64,000 bases of DNA from Nitrosopumilus sp. (GCA_965205215.1 OZ242041.1:1440001-1504000), one strand, 5' to 3'. Numbered from the stretch's first letter, positions 24,504 through 44,752 are shown. Made by a program: numbers and translations. The notes: generated from the letters alone by a model not told the origin.

Positions 24504-24553
24504 CCGCCCCCCTGCCGCCCCCCTGCCGCCCCCCTGCCGCCCCCCTGCCGCCC
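24504..24553. repeat. 11-bp tandem repeat (CCGCCCCCCTG)x4.5
   Basis: Exact tandem units; four G6 runs on the minus strand. Confidence 0.95.
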
Positions 24554-24903
24554 TCCCACGGCCTCGATCGCCGACCACTACTAAATTTTTCATATTACTA
24601 TAATTTACTTACAATAATACTAAAAAAATCATTATATCACTATAATTATAGAAATAACATGATATGTTCAATCTTAAACCATATACATCAAATTAGTCCC
24701 AATATCATACTACCACAAGTTCCATCATAGCGATCCTTGATGGGTTACTTGCCCCTGCATGCGTCAACATACTGCCGAAATAGTCAACATGCTATCATTA
24801 TTATCAGAATAGCGCCACGCACGAGGTTGGTTCAAAATATTTGCCCGGCAGGACAACAAATTGTGACATGGGCTCTCTTTAACGAACCCGTTGACTGGAC
24901 CGC

Positions 24904-25551
24904 ATGGCTACGCTACTGGACAGGCAGATCCGGACAAACCGGACCGTGTCAATCACCATGCAGCACGCACGTGCCATAGGGGACCCGATACGCTCAAGGA
25001 TCTTATCCATGCTGTACGGCCAGACGCTGTCGGCAGAAGAGATCACAGCAGCGGTGAACAGGACGGGACCTGAAAAGGCGCTGTCGACTGTGCGACACCA
25101 CATAGACATCCTCAGGACGACGGGCCTCGTTGAGGTGATGAGGATAGTCGAGTCGCGCGGCGGGATTACGAAGTACTACGGGGCGTCCACGAGGTTGCTG
25201 GACCTCGAGGAACCTGAGAACTTTGAGTCTGCGTACTCGTCGGTGATAGACAGGACGGCAAGACGGCTGGAGGAGATTCTCGGCGGAGTTCTCTCAGATA
25301 TTGCCGCGTCCGGAAACGGCGGCAGGCCTACTGCCGAGTATTCGGCGTACCTGGTGGTGGAGATAATGAACCGCGCCATTACCAAGGTGCTTGAGAAGGG
25401 AAAGAGGCGCAAGCGGCAGGGGAGTGGCCGAAAGGCCACGCGGCAGGCCTCGTCTAGAAAGGCGGATTCGCGTGGGGAGAAAACAACGGCAAGTTCGCGG
25501 TCCGGTAACGACGGAGAGAACGCCGAAAAGGGAGAAACCGGCAACGGCTGA
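24904..25551 (+). CDS. ArsR-like winged-HTH transcriptional regulator
   Basis: AIGDPIRSRILSML, ALSTVRHHIDILRTTGLVEV, GGITKYY. Confidence 0.88.
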   Translation: MATLLDRQIRTNRTVSITMQHARAIGDPIRSRILSMLYGQTLSAEEITAAVNRTGPEKALSTVRHHIDILRTTGLVEVMRIVESRGGITKYYGASTRLLDLEEPENFESAYSSVIDRTARRLEEILGGVLSDIAASGNGGRPTAEYSAYLVVEIMNRAITKVLEKGKRRKRQGSGRKATRQASSRKADSRGEKTTASSRSGNDGENAEKGETGNG

Positions 25552-25699
25552 CATCTGTCCTGCGCATCGCCGTCAGTGACGGCGGGGGAATGCGCGGACC
25601 GGATTGTCGGTTGTGGGAGTTGCCTCTAGGGTGCACTGGTCACGGGGCCGGGCAGATTATATACTGCAGACTGCGCAGCGCGGTGGTGTTCTGGTGCAT

Positions 25700-26140
25700 A
25701 TGGCGCGTGTAAATGTCGATGCGGACTCGGTGAGGCACCTAGAGCGCCTGCTCTCGGGACGGAACCTGGTGTACGTAGCGACCGTAATGCCAGACGGCTC
25801 GCCGCAGGTGACGCCGGTCTGGGCAAACTGGGCTGACGGGTTCATAATGGTCAACACAGCCGAGGGCAGGACAAAGCACCGCAACGTTCTGCGCGATAAC
25901 AGGGTGGCCGTATCGGTCACGTCGGCCGACGATCCGTTGCAGATGGTGTCGGTCCGGGGCGTGGTCGAGGAGATGATCCCCGATTATGACTACAAGTACG
26001 CCGACATCCTGACGCGGCAGTATATGCCGGGGAAGGACAGGTACCCCTTCCGCCGCCCGGGTGAGAGGCGCACTACACTCCGGATAAGGCCCGTCAGCGT
26101 GTACGTCATGCCGGAGATACGGGCGGAGCCCGGCGACTGA
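25700..26140 (+). CDS. PPOX-class F420-dependent oxidoreductase (pyridoxamine 5'-phosphate oxidase family)
   Basis: VATVMPDGSPQVTPVW, NTAEGRTKHRNV.RDNRVAVSV. Confidence 0.9.
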   Translation: MARVNVDADSVRHLERLLSGRNLVYVATVMPDGSPQVTPVWANWADGFIMVNTAEGRTKHRNVLRDNRVAVSVTSADDPLQMVSVRGVVEEMIPDYDYKYADILTRQYMPGKDRYPFRRPGERRTTLRIRPVSVYVMPEIRAEPGD

Positions 26141-26145
26141 TCCGC

Positions 26146-26173
26146 ATGTTTCACAACTCGTATTTAGAAAGAT
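26146..26173. promoter_or_regulatory. 28-bp palindromic site copy 1 (ATGTTTCACAA-CTCGTA-TTTAGAAAGAT)
   Basis: 11-6-11 imperfect inverted repeat similar to copies at 27877 and 29424; function unknown. Confidence 0.6.
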
Positions 26174-26423
26174 TTGGTCGGTGCCCGGCAGTTGCCCGGA
26201 TCCGGCCTCATGCCCGCAGACGCTAAAATGCATTCGTCCTGACGGCACCGGCGCCTGGCGCCATGCGCTATCATTACCCATCGAATTTTTACGCTTTTAA
26301 TGAAAATCAAATAATTACGTTGGTAAGCAGTTGCGCGTCGATGGGACGGGACAAACTCGATTGATTGTGCCTATGTTCGCATACATATGCTCCTGTCGCC
26401 ATTTGACTCGCACATAGGCGTCG

Positions 26424-26915
26424 TCACTCAATGTGGCAGTTTGCAATGCATATGGAGCCTATGTCCTTGAAGTTCTGCTCCTTTTGCGGCCTTATCAGTA
26501 TGTCATACCTAGAGTCCTCATCAAACGGCACGTCAAACTGCGTGCTTCTCTCCACCACGTCGCCCGGCTCGAGCCACTCCACCAGCAGGTCCCTTTGCGA
26601 AAAGTTGCCGTATACAGCCTGGTGCCTCACGCTATCCTCTCCCTCGATGTAAAACTGGCCGCCCGAAAGGAGTGTCCTGTCCTCTCCCTTGTTCTCCGCC
26701 GTGAGTGCAACCATAACGTATACATGCTCTGGCTGCTCCTCCTTGTCGCCCATGTGGGTATTCTCAAACGACACCGTATACTCGACGGGCCCCACCATCA
26801 CGGGCTCGCCCGCGGAGACCTCGAGGTGGTCCGGCGTGTACTCTACGTACATGTAGCCTGCTATGATCATGGACGCTATTATTGCGCCAATGACTATTAC
26901 TACTATTGCAGCCAT
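26424..26915 (-). CDS. membrane-anchored DUF4352-like Ig-fold protein
   Basis: N-terminal TM helix; YVMVALTAENKG, QFYI, LEPG......FDVP pattern. Confidence 0.8.
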   Translation of the reverse strand: MAAIVVIVIGAIIASMIIAGYMYVEYTPDHLEVSAGEPVMVGPVEYTVSFENTHMGDKEEQPEHVYVMVALTAENKGEDRTLLSGGQFYIEGEDSVRHQAVYGNFSQRDLLVEWLEPGDVVERSTQFDVPFDEDSRYDILIRPQKEQNFKDIGSICIANCHIE

Positions 26916-27338
26916 GTGTCTCTCTCCGCCTTTGTCGTATAATATTCTTGAGATTGCCTCCCTCGACTCCCAAACATTGGATCAAATATCCGGATGGCAT
27001 TAGGCCCACATCTTGGTGGCATTAGAACCACGTGGGGGGGGGGGGATTTGGCCCTGTTTTGCCCCCTCTAGTGTACGTCTCCGATCTTCATTGGGATGTC
27101 AGGTGGAAAAGATCAGCTGCTAGCATGACGTTTTTTTGCGTGGAACCGTACGGGCGTGTGAAATCCAAGTCTGTTGGCTGCTTGTTGCAAGGCCTCCAAC
27201 GGTTTTTTGGCTGATTATTTTACGCGTTCTGCCATGTCATTGGGTCGGAATATCGTGGTTTGGTGAGCGTCTATCCTCCCGCCCTGCCGTATACGTATCG
27301 CGCCTCGTGTTTTCTACTAAGTAATCAGTAAAAACACC

Positions 27339-27539
27339 TTTGAGAGGGGGGTTTAGCTTTCACGCCTAGCATGAAACGATTGCACATCCCGGGCCCAGCT
27401 AGCGGGATGGTTTGACCCTTGGATCCCGTATGCAGGCGTGGAAGCTAAACCCCCCCTCAAAATTGCGTTTTCCAGATATTTGGGATTGTGCCTGAACGCG
27501 TGGAGCCGGGAGGGGGGTTTAGCTCTCAGGCGTGAAGCT
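27339..27539. repeat. G-string inverted/direct repeat cluster (GAGGGGGGTTTAGCT core)
   Basis: Near-perfect ~28-bp inverted pair 27339-27367 / 27434-27461 plus a third direct copy at 27510-27533. Confidence 0.85.
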
Positions 27540-27876
27540 GCAAAATGGGTGTTTGGGGGTACTGTCGGCGTTTTTTTTTGGACCTGCAGGACTGCGGCCA
27601 AAAATTGGCCTTTTGCATCCCCCTGTTGCGGGCTCCCCCCGCTTCCTGCCGAATGCCAGTTTGCAGATTGGCGGAAATGGGTTGTATGACATGTGTGGTT
27701 CGTGGTACACCCGGGATGTCGATGCTGGTAGTCTTGCAATAGTCATGGAATCGAGGTTGCGCTATGCCAAAGACATTGTGGAGTTCGGTCCTTGGTATTT
27801 GCAAAGTCGTTTGTAATGTGTTCTGACGTTGGTCTTTCGACAGCATGTCTGGCGTGTCACCGGCACTTGATTTTTG

Positions 27877-27904
27877 ATATTTCTAATTTCGAGTTTAGAA
27901 ATAT
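27877..27904. promoter_or_regulatory. 28-bp palindromic site copy 2 (ATATTTCTAAT-TTCGAG-TTTAGAAATAT)
   Basis: Arms match 10/11 as an inverted repeat around a 6-bp spacer. Confidence 0.7.
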
Positions 27905-28222
27905 TCATAATGGACGCGGCGGGTATTTTATGGAGCCGCCCCGTGCCGCGACACGATGTGCATGTACGTGCTGCTACACATGCGGGCATCGTTCTCCTTT
28001 CCGCGTCTTTCGCACGGTTTTGTGGGGGGCGCTTGGCGACATATGCAATAAACCGACATGCCTCCTGATGTTCTCGGGGTGCGTTTGGCATGTGCCTTGT
28101 ACGTATCATTCGTCGTGGCGGTGGCGGTGAAACCTGCATCATCCGGCCTGCAATGTATGCTGTTGTGGTGGGCAGAAAATGAAAAAACGACTGTGGTTCG
28201 ACGGCGTGTCGGCCCGTATGTG

Positions 28223-28624
28223 TCAGCACAGCGGGGGTATTTGGTCTGCCACGTCCGGCCCCTCTATGATTTCCATGCTCAGGCCGTCAGGATAGAAGCA
28301 GATGTACTCCATGTTTGTCACCGTACCGTCCGCACCCTGCTCTATCGTGAGCTGTGAACCGTCATATCCGGATACGATTATCAGCTTGGTTACACCGGAT
28401 TCAAGGCTCTCCGTCTCGACGTAGATGTCTCGATGCTTCTCCGCGAATGCCACTGCTGCAGGATACTCCATGACGTCTGATGGGAGCGTATCCATGTCCA
28501 TCGAGCCGGGTTCGTCCGTGTCGGGTGGCATGTCAAGCAGGGAAGGCGCAACGTATGAGCTGGCCGTGGCCACTATGATGCCTATGACCGTAATTGCGAT
28601 CAGCGCGATTAGCAATTTTCCCAT
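28223..28624 (-). CDS. membrane-anchored/secreted hypothetical protein
   Basis: N-terminal hydrophobic signal/anchor, acidic globular remainder; TATA-like GTTAAATA upstream. Confidence 0.75.
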   Translation of the reverse strand: MGKLLIALIAITVIGIIVATASSYVAPSLLDMPPDTDEPGSMDMDTLPSDVMEYPAAVAFAEKHRDIYVETESLESGVTKLIIVSGYDGSQLTIEQGADGTVTNMEYICFYPDGLSMEIIEGPDVADQIPPLC

Positions 28625-28824
28625 GCGCGCTGCTTGCCGCCTTTGTATTTAACCGCCAATCTTTGGTTCTTGTGCGATGTCGACACGCCCTGCATTGATG
28701 TCTGTTCTACTGGCACGCGTGTTCGAGTCTGTCTGTGGGTGTTTCAAGCTAATGCATACGGAAGTGACGAGCGGCCGTGATTGGGGGGGGGGGTGGAGAG
28801 GGTTGCGGCAGGCCCGGCTTTTGG

Positions 28825-29277
28825 CTACGTGGCGCGCCTGATGTGCTCCTTTACCTGGTCTGCTATCCTCGTTATCTGTCTCAGGGACTCAGAAAAGTCC
28901 GACTGATTCTGCCTGTCTGCAGAGTCAATTACGACGTATACGCCCACTATGTTGCGCCCGCTGTCCATCAAAAAGCGGTGCACCGCTCCAACGTAGTTGC
29001 AGTACTCTGTGATTCGCTCTCTCACCCTTTGCTGCTCAGATGCAGTCATGTTCAAAAACCGTTGGTTCAGCCTTGTGCCAAACGGGCACCTCCTGCCGAC
29101 CACTATTACGCCCGGCTGCTTGGCCGGCTCAAATATCTCGGTGTCTATGTCGCGTACGTTCGGGGGGCCGCTTATCACAACCTTGAATGAATGTTCGTCA
29201 TCCGGTTTTTGGTACTTGAATCTCAGGCCCTCGTGGATCAGCCAACGCTCTACGTTGTTCTGGATTCGCGATGTCAT
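28825..29277 (-). CDS. DUF2299-like protein
   Basis: MTSRIQNNVERWLIHEGL.F N-terminus resembles the thaumarchaeal DUF2299-type family; start trimmed. Confidence 0.7.
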   Translation of the reverse strand: MTSRIQNNVERWLIHEGLRFKYQKPDDEHSFKVVISGPPNVRDIDTEIFEPAKQPGVIVVGRRCPFGTRLNQRFLNMTASEQQRVRERITEYCNYVGAVHRFLMDSGRNIVGVYVVIDSADRQNQSDFSESLRQITRIADQVKEHIRRAT

Positions 29278-29423
29278 GATATGCGGGATCTGGCGCCACA
29301 ATGCAATATATGCCAAACATGTTGCAGATGATCGTACCGCGTGCTCGGCAGGGTTCCGTGGGGATTTTGGCGGCGTTGTGCGGATTTGTCCTCCCCGTGT
29401 GTCGCCGCTCCTCCATTTTGCCA

Positions 29424-29451
29424 ATGTTTCTAAATTCGAATTTGGAAACTT
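29424..29451. promoter_or_regulatory. 28-bp palindromic site copy 3 (ATGTTTCTAAA-TTCGAA-TTTGGAAACTT)
   Basis: 11-6-11 imperfect inverted repeat. Confidence 0.7.
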
Positions 29452-29481
29452 TGTGTGTTGCCTGCGTCTGGCGGATCCTGA

Positions 29482-29772
29482 TTATGTCTCGTAGTTGAGG
29501 TTGATCATCGAAAACTCGTCTGGCGGGAGCATCCACACGTGTTCGTCCTGAATCGGGGTTCCAAATGCAAGGAGCAACGCGATGGGTACGATAATCGCGG
29601 CAATCCACAGCGCAGTGAGTGTGGCACCTAGCAACAGGCAGTTTTTGGCCTTTGCCGGATCGTCTTGTTTCAGCGCAAAGTATGCTATGATGCCACCCAG
29701 CAGTTGGAGCGTCACAGGCAGCAGGAACCACCACCTGCTGCGGATTGTCTTTCCGCTGCTACTAAGTATCAT
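29482..29772 (-). CDS. small membrane protein, paralog 1 (RS.WWFLLP...GGIIAYF.L..DDP.KA.NCL)
   Basis: Shared motif with two downstream paralogs. Confidence 0.85.
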   Translation of the reverse strand: MILSSSGKTIRSRWWFLLPVTLQLLGGIIAYFALKQDDPAKAKNCLLLGATLTALWIAAIIVPIALLLAFGTPIQDEHVWMLPPDEFSMINLNYET

Positions 29773-30084
29773 GCTGTATGTGATGTGTGGTTGCTTAAGT
29801 AGTTATTTCTATCGACGCCTCAATCGGTTGCATCGGTATGCGCTCGCGGTACGTGCTGCAAGTCCTTTGTCGCCTACGTTCTGAAATTGAAACAAGAACT
29901 ATGGTTTGCTACGTGGTGCCATGCCTGTTCCTCTTATGGTGCGTGATCGAAACGGCGGGCAAACGCATCACAAAGAGGCGCGCGAAGGAAGCCTAATGGT
30001 CCATCAGATCTGCTGGAATTTGCCGGGATTGGAATCTCGCGGAGGTGCAACGTGACGTATGCGATGAGGCGCTACGCGCCGCGG

Positions 30085-30420
30085 TCACATGATCTGTATC
30101 GACGCGAACCACTCTACAATCTCGGAGAGCAGCCATGAAAAGAACCCTTCAATTGTGGACGCGTCGGGAGCGGCTTCCGCGCCAGACTGGTTGGCGTCTG
30201 CTGGATGTGGTGGTGATAATTCCGCCGCCGCCCTTTCTTCTTCCTCCCTGCACTTTGCAAGCTCCGCTTGATAGTCCTGTTCGACGCCGGCGGCTTCCAT
30301 GCTGTCGACTCCCATCTCGCATTCGGACCTGGTTTCTACGTATCCTTCCGGGGTGGGCATGCAGATGTCGCCTATGAGGCTGTATCCATCTCCACACGGA
30401 GACGCCATGCATGTGGGCAT
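30085..30420 (-). CDS. Cys-rich hypothetical protein, possibly a 5'-truncated remnant
   Basis: CGDGYSLIGDIC motif and amphipathic C-terminal FFSWLLSEIVEWF; in-frame stop shortly upstream and no signal peptide. Confidence 0.45.
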   Translation of the reverse strand: MPTCMASPCGDGYSLIGDICMPTPEGYVETRSECEMGVDSMEAAGVEQDYQAELAKCREEEERAAAELSPPHPADANQSGAEAAPDASTIEGFFSWLLSEIVEWFASIQIM

Positions 30421-30963
30421 GACGCAGTCTATTTGTGCGTTGTTCTTTGCACTTGTTCGGGTGCCTCGCTGAGATTGTGCATGACGGCGTCACACTTTAC
30501 CCAAAACCAGGCCCGGACTGAACCCGTATTCTTTAACGGATACGGTAAGATTTCGCATGCATGTCGCCACGGCGTTTGCCGCATGCGCGACGGCCGCCGA
30601 CACCAAGCGGCGCGGCGCCGTATTGTGCGTCTCGTGCTGCTGTTTGCATGCTCTGCCGTCGAGGCCACGGCTGGCGGGGATTTAGAAAAATGGTCCGAGT
30701 TCTGCATCCCCTTGGTGTCGATCATCGCGCAGGCCCACCACCACGTTGCGCCCGCTTTCTGCCAACAAGTGAGTATTGCGCCGCGGAGTCGTAGCGCCTC
30801 CGTGATTCACTCCGGCATCCCTGACACTCCGACATCGTCATGCTCGGAAACCGTTGGATGTGCTTGAGGCTCTCGTTCTCCTTTTTCGTGGCCCTCGACG
30901 GATCTGTCTTGTCCGAATGTGTTGTGTTCGCGTTTCCGCATCCTGTGAGCCTCTGCCTCTGGG

Positions 30964-31149
30964 CTACCCTGGCAGCACATATGCAAGTGCTATGTGTATC
31001 ACAAGCAGTACGGCGCCCAGCATGAGACAGTTTCTGGCCTTTTGCGGATCGTCGTGCCGCAGCACAAAGTATGCGATTATTCCGCCCACTATGGTGAGTA
31101 GTATGGGGAGCAGAAACCACCAATTGCTCCGTCTTTTCTCGTTGTACAT
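30964..31149 (-). CDS. small membrane protein, paralog 2
   Basis: MYNEKRRSNWWFLLP...; TATA GTTATAT ~25 bp upstream. Confidence 0.85.
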   Translation of the reverse strand: MYNEKRRSNWWFLLPILLTIVGGIIAYFVLRHDDPQKARNCLMLGAVLLVIHIALAYVLPG

Positions 31150-31447
31150 GACTCTGGACTGGCGGGTCTGCATATAACCGTTGGAGAACGCCGCGGACCG
31201 GTATCCTGCGGGAACAGCTTTGGGCTCCACCTTCGCGCGGATCACTTGCATACCCCTCGGAGCCTGACGCGCGTATGCCCATCCGCCAACAGCGCGCCGC
31301 GCGGCAGGTTGGCTAGCAGCTGCTGTCTATGGCCCGTTTTGGCCTTGTGCTGGGATCCGGCTCATGTCGGCGTCTTGAGGCCGTCGACTCGAGGCCTTAT
31401 GCGGCCTGATAAGTAAATAAAAAATTACGTCCTTCGTAGTGCGCGTG

Positions 31448-31648
31448 CTAGTCTGCTGCCGGCAGCGCGTCCAATCCGAAGCCTAATACTATCGGTATTG
31501 CAAGCAATACTGCACCAAGCATAAGGCAGTTCCTGGCCTTTTGCGGATCGTCGTGCCGCAGCACAAAGTATGCGATTATTCCTCCAACTATGTTCAGGAA
31601 TATCGGCAACAGGAACCACCAGTTACTCCGAGTCGTTTGGATCTGCAT
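31448..31648 (-). CDS. small membrane protein, paralog 3
   Basis: MQIQTTRSNWWFLLP...; ~50 bp identical to paralog 2. Confidence 0.85.
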   Translation of the reverse strand: MQIQTTRSNWWFLLPIFLNIVGGIIAYFVLRHDDPQKARNCLMLGAVLLAIPIVLGFGLDALPAAD

Positions 31649-44265: not shown

Positions 44266-44517
44266 TCACGTATGGCCTTTGCCGGCCTTTTTGCGTTCTT
44301 GCGTAATCTCTACCTCTACTGCCTCAAGCGGCTCGTCCACCTGGTTGCGGCGTATTGAGAGCAGCTTTGGCTTCTCAAAGTCGGCCGTGCAGTCGGGGCA
44401 CGCATACACCAGCACCCTGTGTTCGTTTGGCGCCTTTGGGTTTGAGAGGCGCGGATAATACACGAGCCTCGCCCCGCAGTCCACGCAGTATCTGTTGGCC
44501 CTCCTGGTCCTAGGCAA
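44266..44517 (-). CDS. small CxxC/CxxC zinc-finger protein
   Basis: YCVDCG...YACPDC; probable TTG start at 44517. Confidence 0.65.
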   Translation of the reverse strand: MPRTRRANRYCVDCGARLVYYPRLSNPKAPNEHRVLVYACPDCTADFEKPKLLSIRRNQVDEPLEAVEVEITQERKKAGKGHT

Positions 44518-44675: not shown

Positions 44676-44752
44676 TGGCGCCGCCCATCAGACTTGAACT
44701 GACGACCGTCCGATTAACAGTCGGATGCTCTACCACGCTGAGCTAGGGCGGC
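44676..44752 (-). tRNA. tRNA-Asn(GTT)
   Basis: Reverse complement GCCGCCCTAGCTCAGCGTGGTAGAGCA-TCCGA-CTGTTAA-TCGGA...GTTCAAGTC...CCA. Confidence 0.96.

Follow-up and report, generated by a model that had tools for sequence, protein, structure and literature searches.

Bacterial fork traps consist of termination sites one of which adjoins the gene of the terminator protein and mediates its autoregulation, and in enterobacteria the MatP dimer binds short palindromes that occur in the terminus only and ties this region to the division apparatus. Dif-like sites are expected at the switch of the skew, and ArsR/SmtB-type operators are 12-2-12 inverted repeats, i.e., long palindromes of a geometry similar to that of the sites described below. 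The archaeal XerA/dif system (Thermococcales, Sulfolobus, Thermoplasma) is described as using a 28-bp site with inverted arms that lies in the chromosome half opposite oriC and away from the recombinase gene (PMC2958812, PMC8371274), the arms being imperfect 11-bp inverted repeats around a 6-bp spacer (PMC2958812). Invertase sites, palindromes of 26 bp, lie on both sides of a segment carrying the recombinase gene (PMC2427008), ZapT of Caulobacter is reported to link the terminus to the division apparatus (PMC7188993), and genome segregation in N. maritimus follows soon after termination (PMC5120986). The window (the whole stretch of 64,000 nucleotides from a Nitrosopumilus genome that was analysed) contains three palindromes of 28 bp whose cluster resembles dif, Ter and matS in its placement, yet is not a Xer/dif system.

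The palindromes and the replichore junction

The letters and positions of the three 28-mers reported in the original prediction were reproduced exactly (Table 1); start to start, copies 1 and 2 are separated by 1,731 bp and copies 2 and 3 by 1,547 bp. With TTTCTAAAYTCGARTTTAGAAA and up to 3 mismatches, three matches were obtained in the window vs. none in each of 100 dinucleotide shuffles. The absence of any further full copy, stated for the window, extends to the whole genome of 2,098,239 bp, in which the best score outside the three copies was 5.4 bits with a symmetrised weight matrix trained on 83 sites from relatives; the motif is confined to one locus and not scattered over promoters. When the genome was scanned more crudely, for TTTCTAA-N8-TTAGAAA with up to 3 mismatches, 30 matches were found (6 with up to 2 mismatches), among which the TCG centre occurred only in the three copies of the window. 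A predicted half-site at 30681 is without meaning (TTTAGAAA occurs 24+20 times genome-wide, and the matrix gives no match at this position). The proposed 11-6-11 division agrees with the length of the site, but the conserved unit is the whole 28-bp palindrome with a symmetric centre, YTCGAR, the near-invariance of which is partly by construction because all 83 matrix sites were chosen for a TCGA centre. Other centres are also present (TTGA, TCAA, TCGG, and TCGT), and the centre of copy 1 (CTCGTA) is one exception to the symmetry.

All three copies are intergenic, as the coordinates of the flanking genes confirm, and copy 1 does lie between convergent genes: it begins 6 nt past the stop of the PNPOx-family gene (26140), with which the plus-strand genes of the left replichore end, and the DUF4352 gene has its stop (26424) 250 nt away. 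Copy 2 is located in the gap 26916-28222, and copy 3 in the interval 29277 to 29482, 147 nt before the DUF2299 gene and behind the gene of a small membrane protein. In one public sequencing run (X5), a contig passes from 27531 to 28885 through 95 other letters and is devoid of copy 2.

Table 1. Features of the window around the palindrome cluster (window coordinates; matches to Pfam models with E-values)
Feature	Position	Strand	Remarks
ArsR-type winged-helix regulator gene, 215 aa	24904..25551	+	HTH_20 3.4e-8, HTH_5 8.7e-6
PNPOx-family (pyridoxamine-phosphate-oxidase-like) gene	25604..26140	+	PNPOx_N 1.8e-13; stop abuts copy 1
Palindrome copy 1	26146..26173	.	Weakest copy, 34.3 bits, centre TCGT; site D of relatives
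DUF4352 membrane-anchored protein gene	26424..26915	-	DUF4352 4.2e-9; conserved inner neighbour of site D (synteny)
Strain-variable segment	27532..28884	.	Holds copy 2 and the gene of the 133-aa protein
Palindrome copy 2	27877..27904	.	Best copy, 50.6 bits; extra site, without counterpart in most relatives
133-aa membrane-anchored protein gene	28223-28624	-	No Pfam match
DUF2299 gene	28825..29277	-	DUF2299 3.8e-8; conserved inner neighbour of site C (synteny)
Palindrome copy 3	29424..29451	.	41.3 bits; site C of relatives
Small membrane protein gene, mem75 family, first of three paralogues	29482..29772	-	Repeat D1
Other two mem75 paralogues	30964-31251 and about 31451-31639		
Zinc-ribbon protein gene (ZnR)	44284..44517	-	tblastn 87% identity to the G012 protein
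tRNA-Asn(GTT)	44679..44752	-	Rfam tRNA

Gene orientation appears to track replication in these archaea. In the genome of the window, ORB repeats adjoin the sole cdc6 gene at about 418.8-419.1 kb, and the antipode of this origin (about 1,468,100) falls between copy 2 and copy 3, the cluster being 50% of the circle away. The cumulative gene-strand bias (1,564 ORFs, computed with a shorter PNPOx-family gene that starts at the ATG at 25700) is lowest at 439,125, at a distance of 20 kb to the origin, and reaches its genome-wide maximum at genome position 1,466,140 (window position 26140), 6 nt before copy 1 and at one of 323 convergent junctions; the gene-orientation switch that had been predicted here is even sharper than claimed. 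In 13 single or main contigs of known length, the distance between the cluster and the main Cdc6_C match amounts to 39.8-50.0% of the circle, and in two further genomes with rounded sizes at about 43% and 47%.

Among the relatives, the strand switch coincides with a site in three genomes, is 4 kb off in a fourth and is absent from the sites in a fifth; the three f1 genomes, that of the window included, provide little more than one observation because they are mutually syntenic. In G010, the strand maximum (604,266) and the GC-skew maximum (604,498) enclose the site at 604,288, the geometric antipode being at 680 kb. In G012, a site (838,923) is again close to the strand maximum (838,878), and the sites do not coincide with the GC-skew maximum of the span. 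In G112, from another family (f15), the strand maximum (1,357,984), the GC-skew maximum (1,358,082) and a site (1,357,994) again coincide, in a span with 76 convergent junctions. In G087 (f15), both maxima fall at about 1,941.6-1,941.8 kb within an 800-kb span; the last strong site is 3.8 kb away and the antipode 310 kb. The counter-example is the complete genome G026 (f9), in which both maxima are at about 545 kb in a 400-kb span, 160 kb from the sites, and the sites coincide with a local bump only. Skew and strand bias cannot be counted as two independent measures, because gene orientation largely produces the GC skew, which has the opposite sign in the genome of the window. In addition, part of the local switch is due to the ribosomal-protein cluster, which always adjoins the sites. 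The cluster is conserved at a comparable place in the relatives, with G026 as the one counter-example found.

Conservation of the sites and the candidate binder c4

The site of the relatives reads ATRTTTCWAAAYTCGARTTTWGAAAYAT and forms one cluster of 2-5 copies per genome, which spans 15 kb or less. We found it (relaxed pattern, up to 1 mismatch) in 98 of 100 genomes of four families: the family of the window's genome (f1, 40/40) and three others that also carry amoA (f4, 9/9; f9, 10/11; f15, 39/40). Outside these families, matches were present in 3 of 100 genomes, each a single-copy one-off, and the reversed pattern, used as control, matched in 7 genomes. Within the order, the families with a palindrome cluster are exactly the four with amoA. 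In BLAST searches, the 28-mer was nearly the only DNA of the region matched in 17 of 18 genomes of the genus (G002, G014, and G018 additionally match parts of the region at 68-73%).

The sites keep their place while the surrounding genes change. In f15, f4, and f9 the intervening DNA holds the bio operon and a recombinase gene (PF00239 being detected in f15 only), in f1 it holds DUF2299...DUF4352. Site D is located 9-20 nt past the PNPOx stop in at least 13 loci of the genus, and in the genome of the window, as in every genus locus that reaches it, between convergent gene ends. Sites follow the stop codons of unrelated genes (PNPOx, bioF, c20) by 0-20 nt or stand behind tRNA-Asn, where, in the genus and in f4, the palindrome begins 2-8 nt past the 3' end. 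The gene for the zinc-ribbon protein, which in relatives lies directly behind sites A and B, is displaced by 15 kb in the genome of the window, and no palindrome was found in its upstream sequence, nor, when the sequence was read, after the 3' end of tRNA-Asn(GTT); both genes left the cluster without their sites, and a new site (copy 2) arose in place. The sites show no promoter preference: of 94 sites classed by a crude ORF call, 27 are flanked by gene ends on both sides, 12 by gene starts on both sides and 49 by one of each.

The best candidate for a protein that binds the palindromes may be c4, as suggested by its gene neighbourhood, charge and distribution. It is a basic, helical, clade-specific protein of 112 aa (median pI 10.3), encoded at genome position 1,519,613-1,519,948, 15.6 kb past the right end of the window. 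The gene is single-copy in f1 (40/40), f4 (9/9), f9 (9/11), and f15 (38/40) and absent from the 100 genomes sampled outside these families; its co-occurrence with the motif is no more specific than the amoA clade. It is always arranged tail-to-tail with the gene of a CdvB (ESCRT-III) paralogue. In all 19 genomes of f15, f4, and f9 that were examined, a palindrome precedes the aligned coding part of c4 by 21-59 nt, whereas in f1 the c4 promoter carries no site and the gene is found 11-50 kb from the cluster (about 200-425 kb in two f1 genera). No Pfam match and no DNA-binding fold were recognised for c4 (best Foldseek E = 2.2; best VIA Z = 5.8).

Possible functions of the cluster

The sites are unique, conserved and situated where the replichores meet opposite the origin, and because of this the cluster probably marks the terminus; for the full claim, that the palindromes are copies of one 28-bp predicted protein-binding site marking the replichore junction or replication terminus, we consider the chances about even. 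A symmetric dimer of a clade-specific DNA-binding protein, possibly c4, would sit on each palindrome, and the bound cluster would act on the chromosome at the end of replication and not as a gene switch. It might be a stopping place for converging forks and converging transcription and/or the place where sister chromosomes are unlinked and handed over to the division machinery; in f15, the serine recombinase that resides among the sites may use them for crossover. Of the two readings offered by the original prediction, clustered terminus-organising sites agree with the evidence (the cluster is antipodal to the Cdc6/ORB origin and placed at the orientation flip), whereas the XerA cassette array does not.

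The main rival, which appears unlikely on balance, is that the palindromes serve locally as operators, bound by a dimeric transcription factor (c4, the zinc-ribbon protein or another one). Its targets would be a handful of neighbours (c4, ZnR, DUF2299, and the bio operon), and the sites would lie at the terminus by accident, through inherited synteny with the ribosomal-protein cluster. The short, fixed distance between site and c4 in 19/19 genomes of three families agrees with such a function, as do sites upstream of ZnR in f1, f4, and f9, site C, which in most genus loci precedes the DUF2299 start by about 64 nt (range 52-65 nt), and, in G026, both a site that abuts the TATA-like box of c4 and the position of the sites off the main strand switch; few sites at one locus are also typical of a local regulon. 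However, a promoter position is seen for c4 in f15, f4, and f9 and for DUF2299 in the genus but not for site D (copy 1), copy 2 or c4 in f1. Convergent gene ends around site D and sites closely behind unrelated stops and a tRNA gene are not what operators would require, the putative targets differ by family (genes lose sites, and sites remain at the locus), near-identity over 28 bp in four families is unusual, and the match with the strand-bias maximum, at 1 of 323 junctions (1 of 76 in G112), would have to be chance.

Rather improbable is a set of crossover sites of a small serine recombinase of the resolvase/invertase type, active in f15, where its role would be to invert the bio segment or, at the terminus, to resolve chromosome dimers; in f1, the enzyme would have been lost and the sites would be reused otherwise or be slowly decaying relics. 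A protein of about 200-220 aa with PF00239 and HTH_7 is single-copy in 39/40 genomes of f15, is encoded between or beside palindromes in 7/7 loci examined there, and can be aligned from end to end with a DNA invertase (E = 8e-13) and, at E = 1e-16, with the resolvases of Tn3 and gamma-delta. Known invertase sites likewise surround a recombinase gene, the position of the palindromes at the strand switch matches that expected of dif-like sites, and the block from bioA to bioF is oriented in genus g28 opposite to four other f15 genera. But this difference is no clean site-to-site inversion (the c20 gene misfits), the region upstream of the G112 recombinase gene holds one palindrome and not a three-part res site, and PF00239 was detected neither in the genome of the window nor in f1 (0/40) or f4 (0/9), in which the sites are conserved as in f15. 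Gene order is identical in 17 loci of the genus, contrary to the predicted shuffling of genes between sites, and no strand-changing joint occurs in the contigs of four public runs (9 joints are listed for the 4 runs, all of them skips, and contigs hide rare forms).

An array of XerA/dif sites with gene cassettes, as originally proposed, is very improbable. The length of 28 bp, the inverted arms, the terminus location (in the terminus region near the skew switch, as for dif, except in G026) and the different lengths of the C-D interval among relatives speak for it, but the best match to the XerA model NF040815 in the genome of the window has 33.3 bits against a cut-off of 220, and none of the 201 genomes of the order passes this curated cut-off, which 4 archaeal control genomes do. 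The complete genome G010, with 5 sites, yields neither a PF00589 match (E <= 0.1) nor a match to the XerA model (E <= 0.01). The window itself holds no recombinase gene, as had been stated: the PF00589 matches in its genome are all outside it (602,692; 1,223,546; 1,225,599; 1,974,660). Moreover, there are 2-5 copies per genome (three here) and not one, the centre is symmetric, whereas that of dif is asymmetric and thereby gives recombination a direction, and what varies is DNA that two conserved genes enclose within the C-D segment, not the DNA at the sites. Equally remote is an RNA-level 3'-end element, a transcribed hairpin that ends or stabilises transcripts: many sites do follow a stop codon or the tRNA 3' end closely, in G012 a T-run stands behind site A, and arm changes tend to be symmetric (66/83 vs. 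49 expected at positions 8/21 and 60/83 vs. 45 at 12/17, an excess confounded by phylogeny), but the 28-bp sequence itself is conserved beyond pairing, mispairing mixed arms are tolerated (17/83 and 23/83 sites, respectively), most copies lack the T-run, thousands of genes outside this single locus have no such element and a search of Rfam gave no match.

Comparison with known systems

The ArsR/SmtB operators resemble the cluster in that, in the genome of the window, the gene of an ArsR-type regulator, with weak likeness to the archaeal ArsR-type protein PH1932, lies beside it. They differ in that no palindrome is present at the promoter of this gene and that site D is placed between convergent genes; the regulator is unlikely to be the universal binder because no orthologue of it was detected in G026 and G216, and in G033 and G087 the orthologue is distant from the palindromes.

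The inner A-tract/T-tract layout of the palindrome may resemble that of invertase sites. Near-palindromic sites of 26-28 bp flank a recombinase segment in Hin/hix, Gin/gix and Tn3/gamma-delta (res site I) (PMC2427008), and f15 retains such an enzyme among its palindromes. On the other hand, the enzyme was not found in the genome of the window, f1 or f4, no enhancer, accessory subsites or clean inversion were seen, and the sites are chromosomal, at the terminus and apparently inherited vertically. With XerA/dif, the cluster shares the 28-bp site with inverted arms, here at the switch of the strand bias; it differs in the lack of a XerA above the cut-off (in this genome and in the 201 genomes of the order), in the clustered copies and in the conserved symmetric centre.

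Like Tus-Ter of E. coli and RTP-Ter of B. subtilis, the cluster consists of several, here predicted, protein-binding sites around the terminus, and, as in fork traps, a site is present in the promoter of the putative binder gene c4 in three families (f15, f4, f9). Ter sites, however, are asymmetric and polar and are dispersed across hundreds of kb without marking the switch of the skew, whereas the palindromes form one cluster of up to 15 kb exactly at the switch, with no opposed polar groups, and Pfam and fold searches revealed no similarity of c4 to Tus or RTP. Perfect palindromes cannot supply the polarity of the known fork traps and dif sites.

The cluster shares with MatP-matS and ZapT the restriction of the sites to the terminus region, and the pairing of the c4 gene with the CdvB paralogue gene might reflect a comparable tie to division. 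The matS sites have 13 bp and are scattered over a large domain, whereas here 2-5 sites of 28 bp occupy one spot, and the link to Cdv is suggested here by gene neighbourhood alone. If the palindromes do mark the terminus, they would do so in a group of archaea without the usual Xer/dif system.

Distribution and layout of the palindromes

The genome of the Nitrosopumilus sp. under study (G000), an archaeon in which amoA is present, is a single contig of 2,098,239 bp with 60.3% G+C, of which the window covers 1,440,001-1,504,000, and within it the three 28-bp palindromes (copies 1 to 3; see table) form AT-rich islands whose sequences read exactly as originally reported. The pattern TTTCTAAAYTCGARTTTAGAAA, with up to 3 mismatches allowed, matched three times in the window and not once in 100 shuffles. 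A weight matrix built from 83 sites of relatives was run over the entire genome, and copies 2, 3 and 1 scored 50.6, 41.3 and 34.3 bits, respectively; the gap between the last of these and the next best genome position (5.4 bits) indicates that there are exactly three sites in the genome, all within 3.3 kb. A lone half-site that had been noted at 30681 is noise, judging from how often its sequence recurs in the genome (24+20 times) and from the matrix scan.

When 3.6 kb of the region was compared by BLAST with 18 genomes of the same genus, the 28-mer was nearly the sole DNA recovered in 17 of them (parts of the region also match at 68-73% in G002, G014 and G018), and the copy number per genus cluster is two to five. 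Across the order, 201 genomes were searched with the relaxed pattern TTTCNNAAYTCGARTTNNGAAA (at most one mismatch), the reversed pattern serving as control. The motif was present in 40/40 genomes of f1 (the family of G000), 9/9 of f4, 10/11 of f9 and 39/40 of f15, and amoA was found in the same four families (40/40, 9/9, 11/11 and 38/40, respectively) and in no other. All other families pooled gave three single-copy one-off matches, and the reversed control matched seven genomes. The site consensus is ATRTTTCWAAAYTCGARTTTWGAAAYAT, the W positions of which covary between families (TTTCTAAA in f1; TTTCAAAA in f4; TTTCATAA or TTTCAGAA in f9 and part of f15). One genome with amoA, G091, misses both the motif and c4 (a basic, clade-specific protein and candidate binder), and in G158 the motif, c4 and the recombinase described below are all missing, which suggests that the locus is probably unassembled. 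The unpublished genome G237 underlies none of the claims made here.

Gene order is constant in the genus (17 loci of 16 genomes): rpS8, rpL6, a 95-aa gene, tRNA-Asn, site A, 71 bp, site B, a zinc-ribbon gene (ZnR), a small membrane-protein gene, site C, DUF2299, a variable stretch, DUF4352, (a lysine-rich gene), site D, PNPOx, an ArsR-type regulator and purC. Site A begins 2-5 nt past tRNA-Asn, and site D lies 9-20 nt past the PNPOx stop and ~44 nt past the stop of the convergent gene. Copy 1 of G000 corresponds to site D and copy 3 to site C; sites A and B were lost, the tRNA-Asn and ZnR genes now being 15 kb off with no site beside them. Copy 2 was gained, on a 1.35-kb segment (copy 2 and the gene of a 133-aa membrane-anchored protein) in place of which a contig of the related strain in sequencing run X5 has 95 other letters, so that the extra site rides on strain-variable DNA. 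In f15, f4 and f9, the sites flank bioF-bioB-bioA and the c4 gene (product of about 110 aa), which is paired with a CdvB paralogue; a small serine recombinase gene is among the flanked genes in f15 only.

The suggestion that the sites delimit a cassette array shuffling small surface genes does not agree with these collinear loci. In this genus of f1 the gene order is fixed and the variable DNA lies inside the C-D segment, away from the sites; a contig of run X1 that covers 24524-31063 shows no difference, and none of the nine joints listed in four runs changes strand, all being skips (in contigs, where rare forms are invisible). Contig ends at 27877, 27878 and 29425, which could pass for recombination junctions, have flanking 30-mers that are absent from the window at up to 3 mismatches; we read them as related-strain contigs that align only from the conserved palindrome onward.

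Two other elements were observed at the locus. The mem75-type small membrane protein (motif WWFLLP...GGIIAYF) is encoded by three tandem paralogues in G000 and by one copy in relatives, and a contig of run X5 joins 29449 to 31028, which suggests fewer copies in that strain. A long GC-rich hairpin with a third arm (arms GAGGGGGGTTTAGCTTTCACGCC and complement) has a folding energy well below that of shuffles (-97.5 kcal/mol, z = -5.2) and no Rfam match; part of it recurs elsewhere in the genome and, at 68% identity, in the same locus of G002. An ncRNA is one possible identity for this hairpin, a miniature mobile element another.

Coordinates of the palindromes, strand-bias maxima and associated features (w, window; g, genome)
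Feature	Genome (family)	Position	GC-skew maximum	Site or detail
Copy 1	G000 (f1)	w 26146		
Copy 2	G000 (f1)	w 27877		
Copy 3	G000 (f1)	w 29424		
Segment replaced in run X5	G000 (f1)	w 27532-28884		
Hairpin	G000 (f1)	w 27339-27462		third arm w 27510-27534
Recurrence of part of hairpin	G000 (f1)	g 948,890-948,926		
mem75-type paralogues	G000 (f1)	w 29482-29772; 30964-31251; ~31451-31639		
ORB-type repeats	G000 (f1)	g about 418,813-419,146		239-572 of locus extract L001
c4 gene	G000 (f1)	g 1,519,613-1,519,948		minus strand; 112-aa product
Tyrosine-recombinase-like ORFs	G000 (f1)	g 84,424-86,007; 1,223,141-1,224,739; 1,225,329-1,226,795; 1,973,814-1,975,469		~490-550 aa
Strand-bias maximum, whole genome	G000 (f1)	g 1,466,140		copy 1 starts 6 nt later
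Strand-bias maximum, 200 kb	G010 (f1)	g 604,266	604,498	site 604,288
Strand-bias maximum, 200 kb	G012 (f1)	g 838,878	917,517 (away from sites)	site 838,923
Strand-bias maximum, 400 kb	G112 (f15)	g 1,357,984	1,358,082	site 1,357,994-1,358,015
Strand-bias maximum, 800 kb	G087 (f15)	g 1,941,594	1,941,819	last strong site 3.8 kb off
Strand-bias maximum, 400 kb	G026 (f9)	g about 545 kb	about 545 kb	sites 704-710 kb
tRNA-Asn gene with intron	G087 (f15)	L050 16604-16710		
tRNA-Asn gene with intron	G112 (f15)	L052 4341-4452		

Position on the chromosome and the strand switch

G000 has a single cdc6 gene, just upstream of which four ORB-type repeats (three direct, one inverted) likely constitute the replication origin, and the same arrangement is reported for N. 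maritimus (PMC5797428, PMC4010727). The antipode of this origin, ~1,468,100, is flanked by copies 2 and 3. The distance of the cluster from the main Cdc6_C hit, with contigs taken as circles, is 39.8-50.0% of the circumference in 13 single or main contigs that have a known length and represent all four families, and about 43% and 47% in two more genomes with rounded sizes. The cluster itself was rejected as an origin: it lies opposite the repeats beside cdc6 (~419 kb), which are of the canonical ORB type and do not resemble the palindrome.

Strand bias was computed from crude ORF calls (with a GC3 filter in G000) by summing +1 or -1 per coding base along the whole G000 genome and along parts of five others. 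In G000 (1,564 ORFs, 80% of the genome) the genome-wide maximum coincides with the PNPOx stop codon, at one of the 323 convergent junctions, and this bears out the gene-orientation switch that had been noticed at the palindromes; at the other extreme, the curve is lowest at 439,125, 20 kb away from the origin. The geometric antipode of G010 is at 680 kb, whereas its switch is at the site, which argues that the sites, not the antipode, carry the switch. The span analyzed in G112 contains 76 convergent junctions. In G087 the strand-bias and GC-skew maxima are 310 kb from the geometric antipode, and a tRNA-Asn gene, the intron of which holds a degenerate copy of the palindrome, is found at the switch junction. 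G026 is a counter-example, its sites being on a local bump only, and the three f1 genomes tested are mutually syntenic. In f15 the tRNA-Asn genes (G087 and G112) have their intron placed after the D arm and before the anticodon stem, and neither locus yielded a tRNA in the ARAGORN listing.

GC skew for the most part tracks the composition of the coding strand, and in G000 it was not accepted as independent evidence: its cumulative minimum is at 1,408,263, the curve is irregular, and the sign is opposite to that of AT-rich relatives, so the skew mainly reflects coding-strand composition. We infer that gene orientation bias follows replication direction, the one support here being the strand-bias minimum beside the ORB origin. 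In the whole G000 genome, runs of at least 8 G (56) outnumber runs of at least 8 C (39), and G runs concentrate at 0.9-1.5 Mb, the plus strand of the replichore ending at the palindromes.

The candidate binding protein c4

The c4 gene is single-copy in 40/40 genomes of f1, 9/9 of f4, 9/11 of f9 and 38/40 of f15, and is found in none of the other 100 genomes; its co-occurrence with the motif is no tighter than the amoA clade. The protein is strongly basic (median pI 10.3, 34 members) with an all-helical AlphaFold model (mean pLDDT 87.7, pTM 0.49). It matches no Pfam family, no fold could be assigned (Foldseek against PDB, best E = 2.2; VIA wide search, best Z = 5.8), and what the ESM Atlas gave was confined to unnamed clusters of Nitrososphaerota. 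A palindrome is located 21-59 nt before the aligned part of the c4 gene in all genomes examined of f15 (7/7), f4 (3/3) and f9 (9/9), and the simplest reading of these sequences is that c4 is autoregulated as the protein binding the site. In f1 there is no site at the gene, which is 11-50 kb from the cluster, and in two other f1 genera it is hundreds of kb away, the sites there still being about 43-47% of the circle from cdc6. The c4 gene is always paired with a CdvB paralogue gene. The ArsR-like neighbour was rejected as a universal binder (neither G026 nor G216 yielded it, and in G033 and G087 it is far from the sites).

A proposed terminus mark and its alternatives

We put at about even the chance that the palindromes mark the replication terminus, with c4 as the likely binder. 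A chromosomal role is favoured because there is a single cluster per genome, conservation over 28 bp is extreme, the sites persist while flanking genes change or leave, a conserved site lies between convergent genes, and the match to the global strand-bias maximum is exact. The original prediction had offered terminus-organising sites as an alternative, and this part of it gains from the antipodal position and the strand-bias maximum in G000, G026 being the counter-example. Such a mark might act as a fork or transcription barrier, as an unlinking or resolution site, or as a tether to the division machinery.

That the palindromes are instead a local set of operators is possible, though we consider it rather unlikely. 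The fixed promoter-proximal sites at c4, ZnR and DUF2299 and the counter-example of G026 speak for it. Operators scattered over the genome were rejected, since the matrix scan of G000 and the order-wide search show the motif confined to the cluster.

A primary function as serine-recombinase sites is improbable. The f15 enzyme (Resolvase plus HTH_7, 113 bits) resembles Tn3 and gamma-delta resolvases (E = 1e-16) and a DNA invertase (E = 8e-13), is single-copy in 39 of the 40 f15 genomes, and its gene is among the sites at the f15 loci examined; no serine recombinase was found in G000, in the 40 f1 genomes or in the nine of f4. The bio block of genus g28 has an orientation opposite to that in four other f15 genera, and this change is not a clean site-to-site inversion.

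The XerA dif array of the original prediction now appears highly improbable: the best match to the XerA model in G000 has 33 bits (cut-off 220), none of the 201 genomes of the order reaches the curated cut-off, which four archaeal control genomes do, only 15 of the 201 give any match at E <= 1e-30, and no tyrosine-recombinase match was obtained in the complete genome G010, in which five sites are present. In G000 the weak PF00589 (tyrosine recombinase) matches belong to four paralogous ORFs of about 500 aa, all distant from the window. Four closely related ORFs of G000 (see table), two of them adjacent, show a weak tyrosine-recombinase signature of catalysis and end in low-complexity tails of poly-G, poly-H and poly-Q; mobile elements may be the source of these ORFs, as integrases. 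That the palindromes function as RNA hairpins is scarcely credible, and Rfam gave no match over 26000-31500 at E <= 1.

Returning to the terminus mark, we tentatively suggest, with less confidence, that amoA archaea might have a terminus system of their own. Small basic proteins of a new family, c4, would bind the two to five palindromes at the replichore junction, and the bound cluster would stop converging forks and/or recruit enzymes that unlink or resolve sister chromosomes (the serine recombinase in Nitrososphaeraceae-like genomes and some other factor elsewhere). A further role of the cluster would be to pass the terminus on to the Cdv/ESCRT-III division machinery, a step proposed alongside the constant pairing of the CdvB paralogue gene with c4.

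These results bear on how archaea with one origin finish replicating, separate their chromosomes by resolution or unlinking, and tie these steps to Cdv-based division, in a globally abundant group, the ammonia oxidisers. They provide a cis element at the junction of the replichores that is precise, conserved and easy to test, together with a candidate binder and, in f15, a candidate recombinase. If the palindromes are ordinary operators, the clade would still gain from them a clean and deeply conserved marker of a regulon. In the literature searched, no description of the motif, or of any dif/Ter element, in ammonia-oxidising archaea was found, and among the matches listed for literal motif strings, all from mammalian papers on other subjects, there was just an 18-mer centred on CTCGAG and no 22-mer. 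Thaumarchaeota, Nitrosopumilus and Cenarchaeum do not figure in the main text of the XerA/dif paper (PMC2958812); its supplementary figures and tables could list such genomes. XerA scores below the cut-off across the order raise the question of chromosome-dimer resolution in these archaea, and if the palindromes and c4 do mark the terminus, no replication-terminus element or terminus-binding protein would have been defined before them in archaea, Xer/dif apart.
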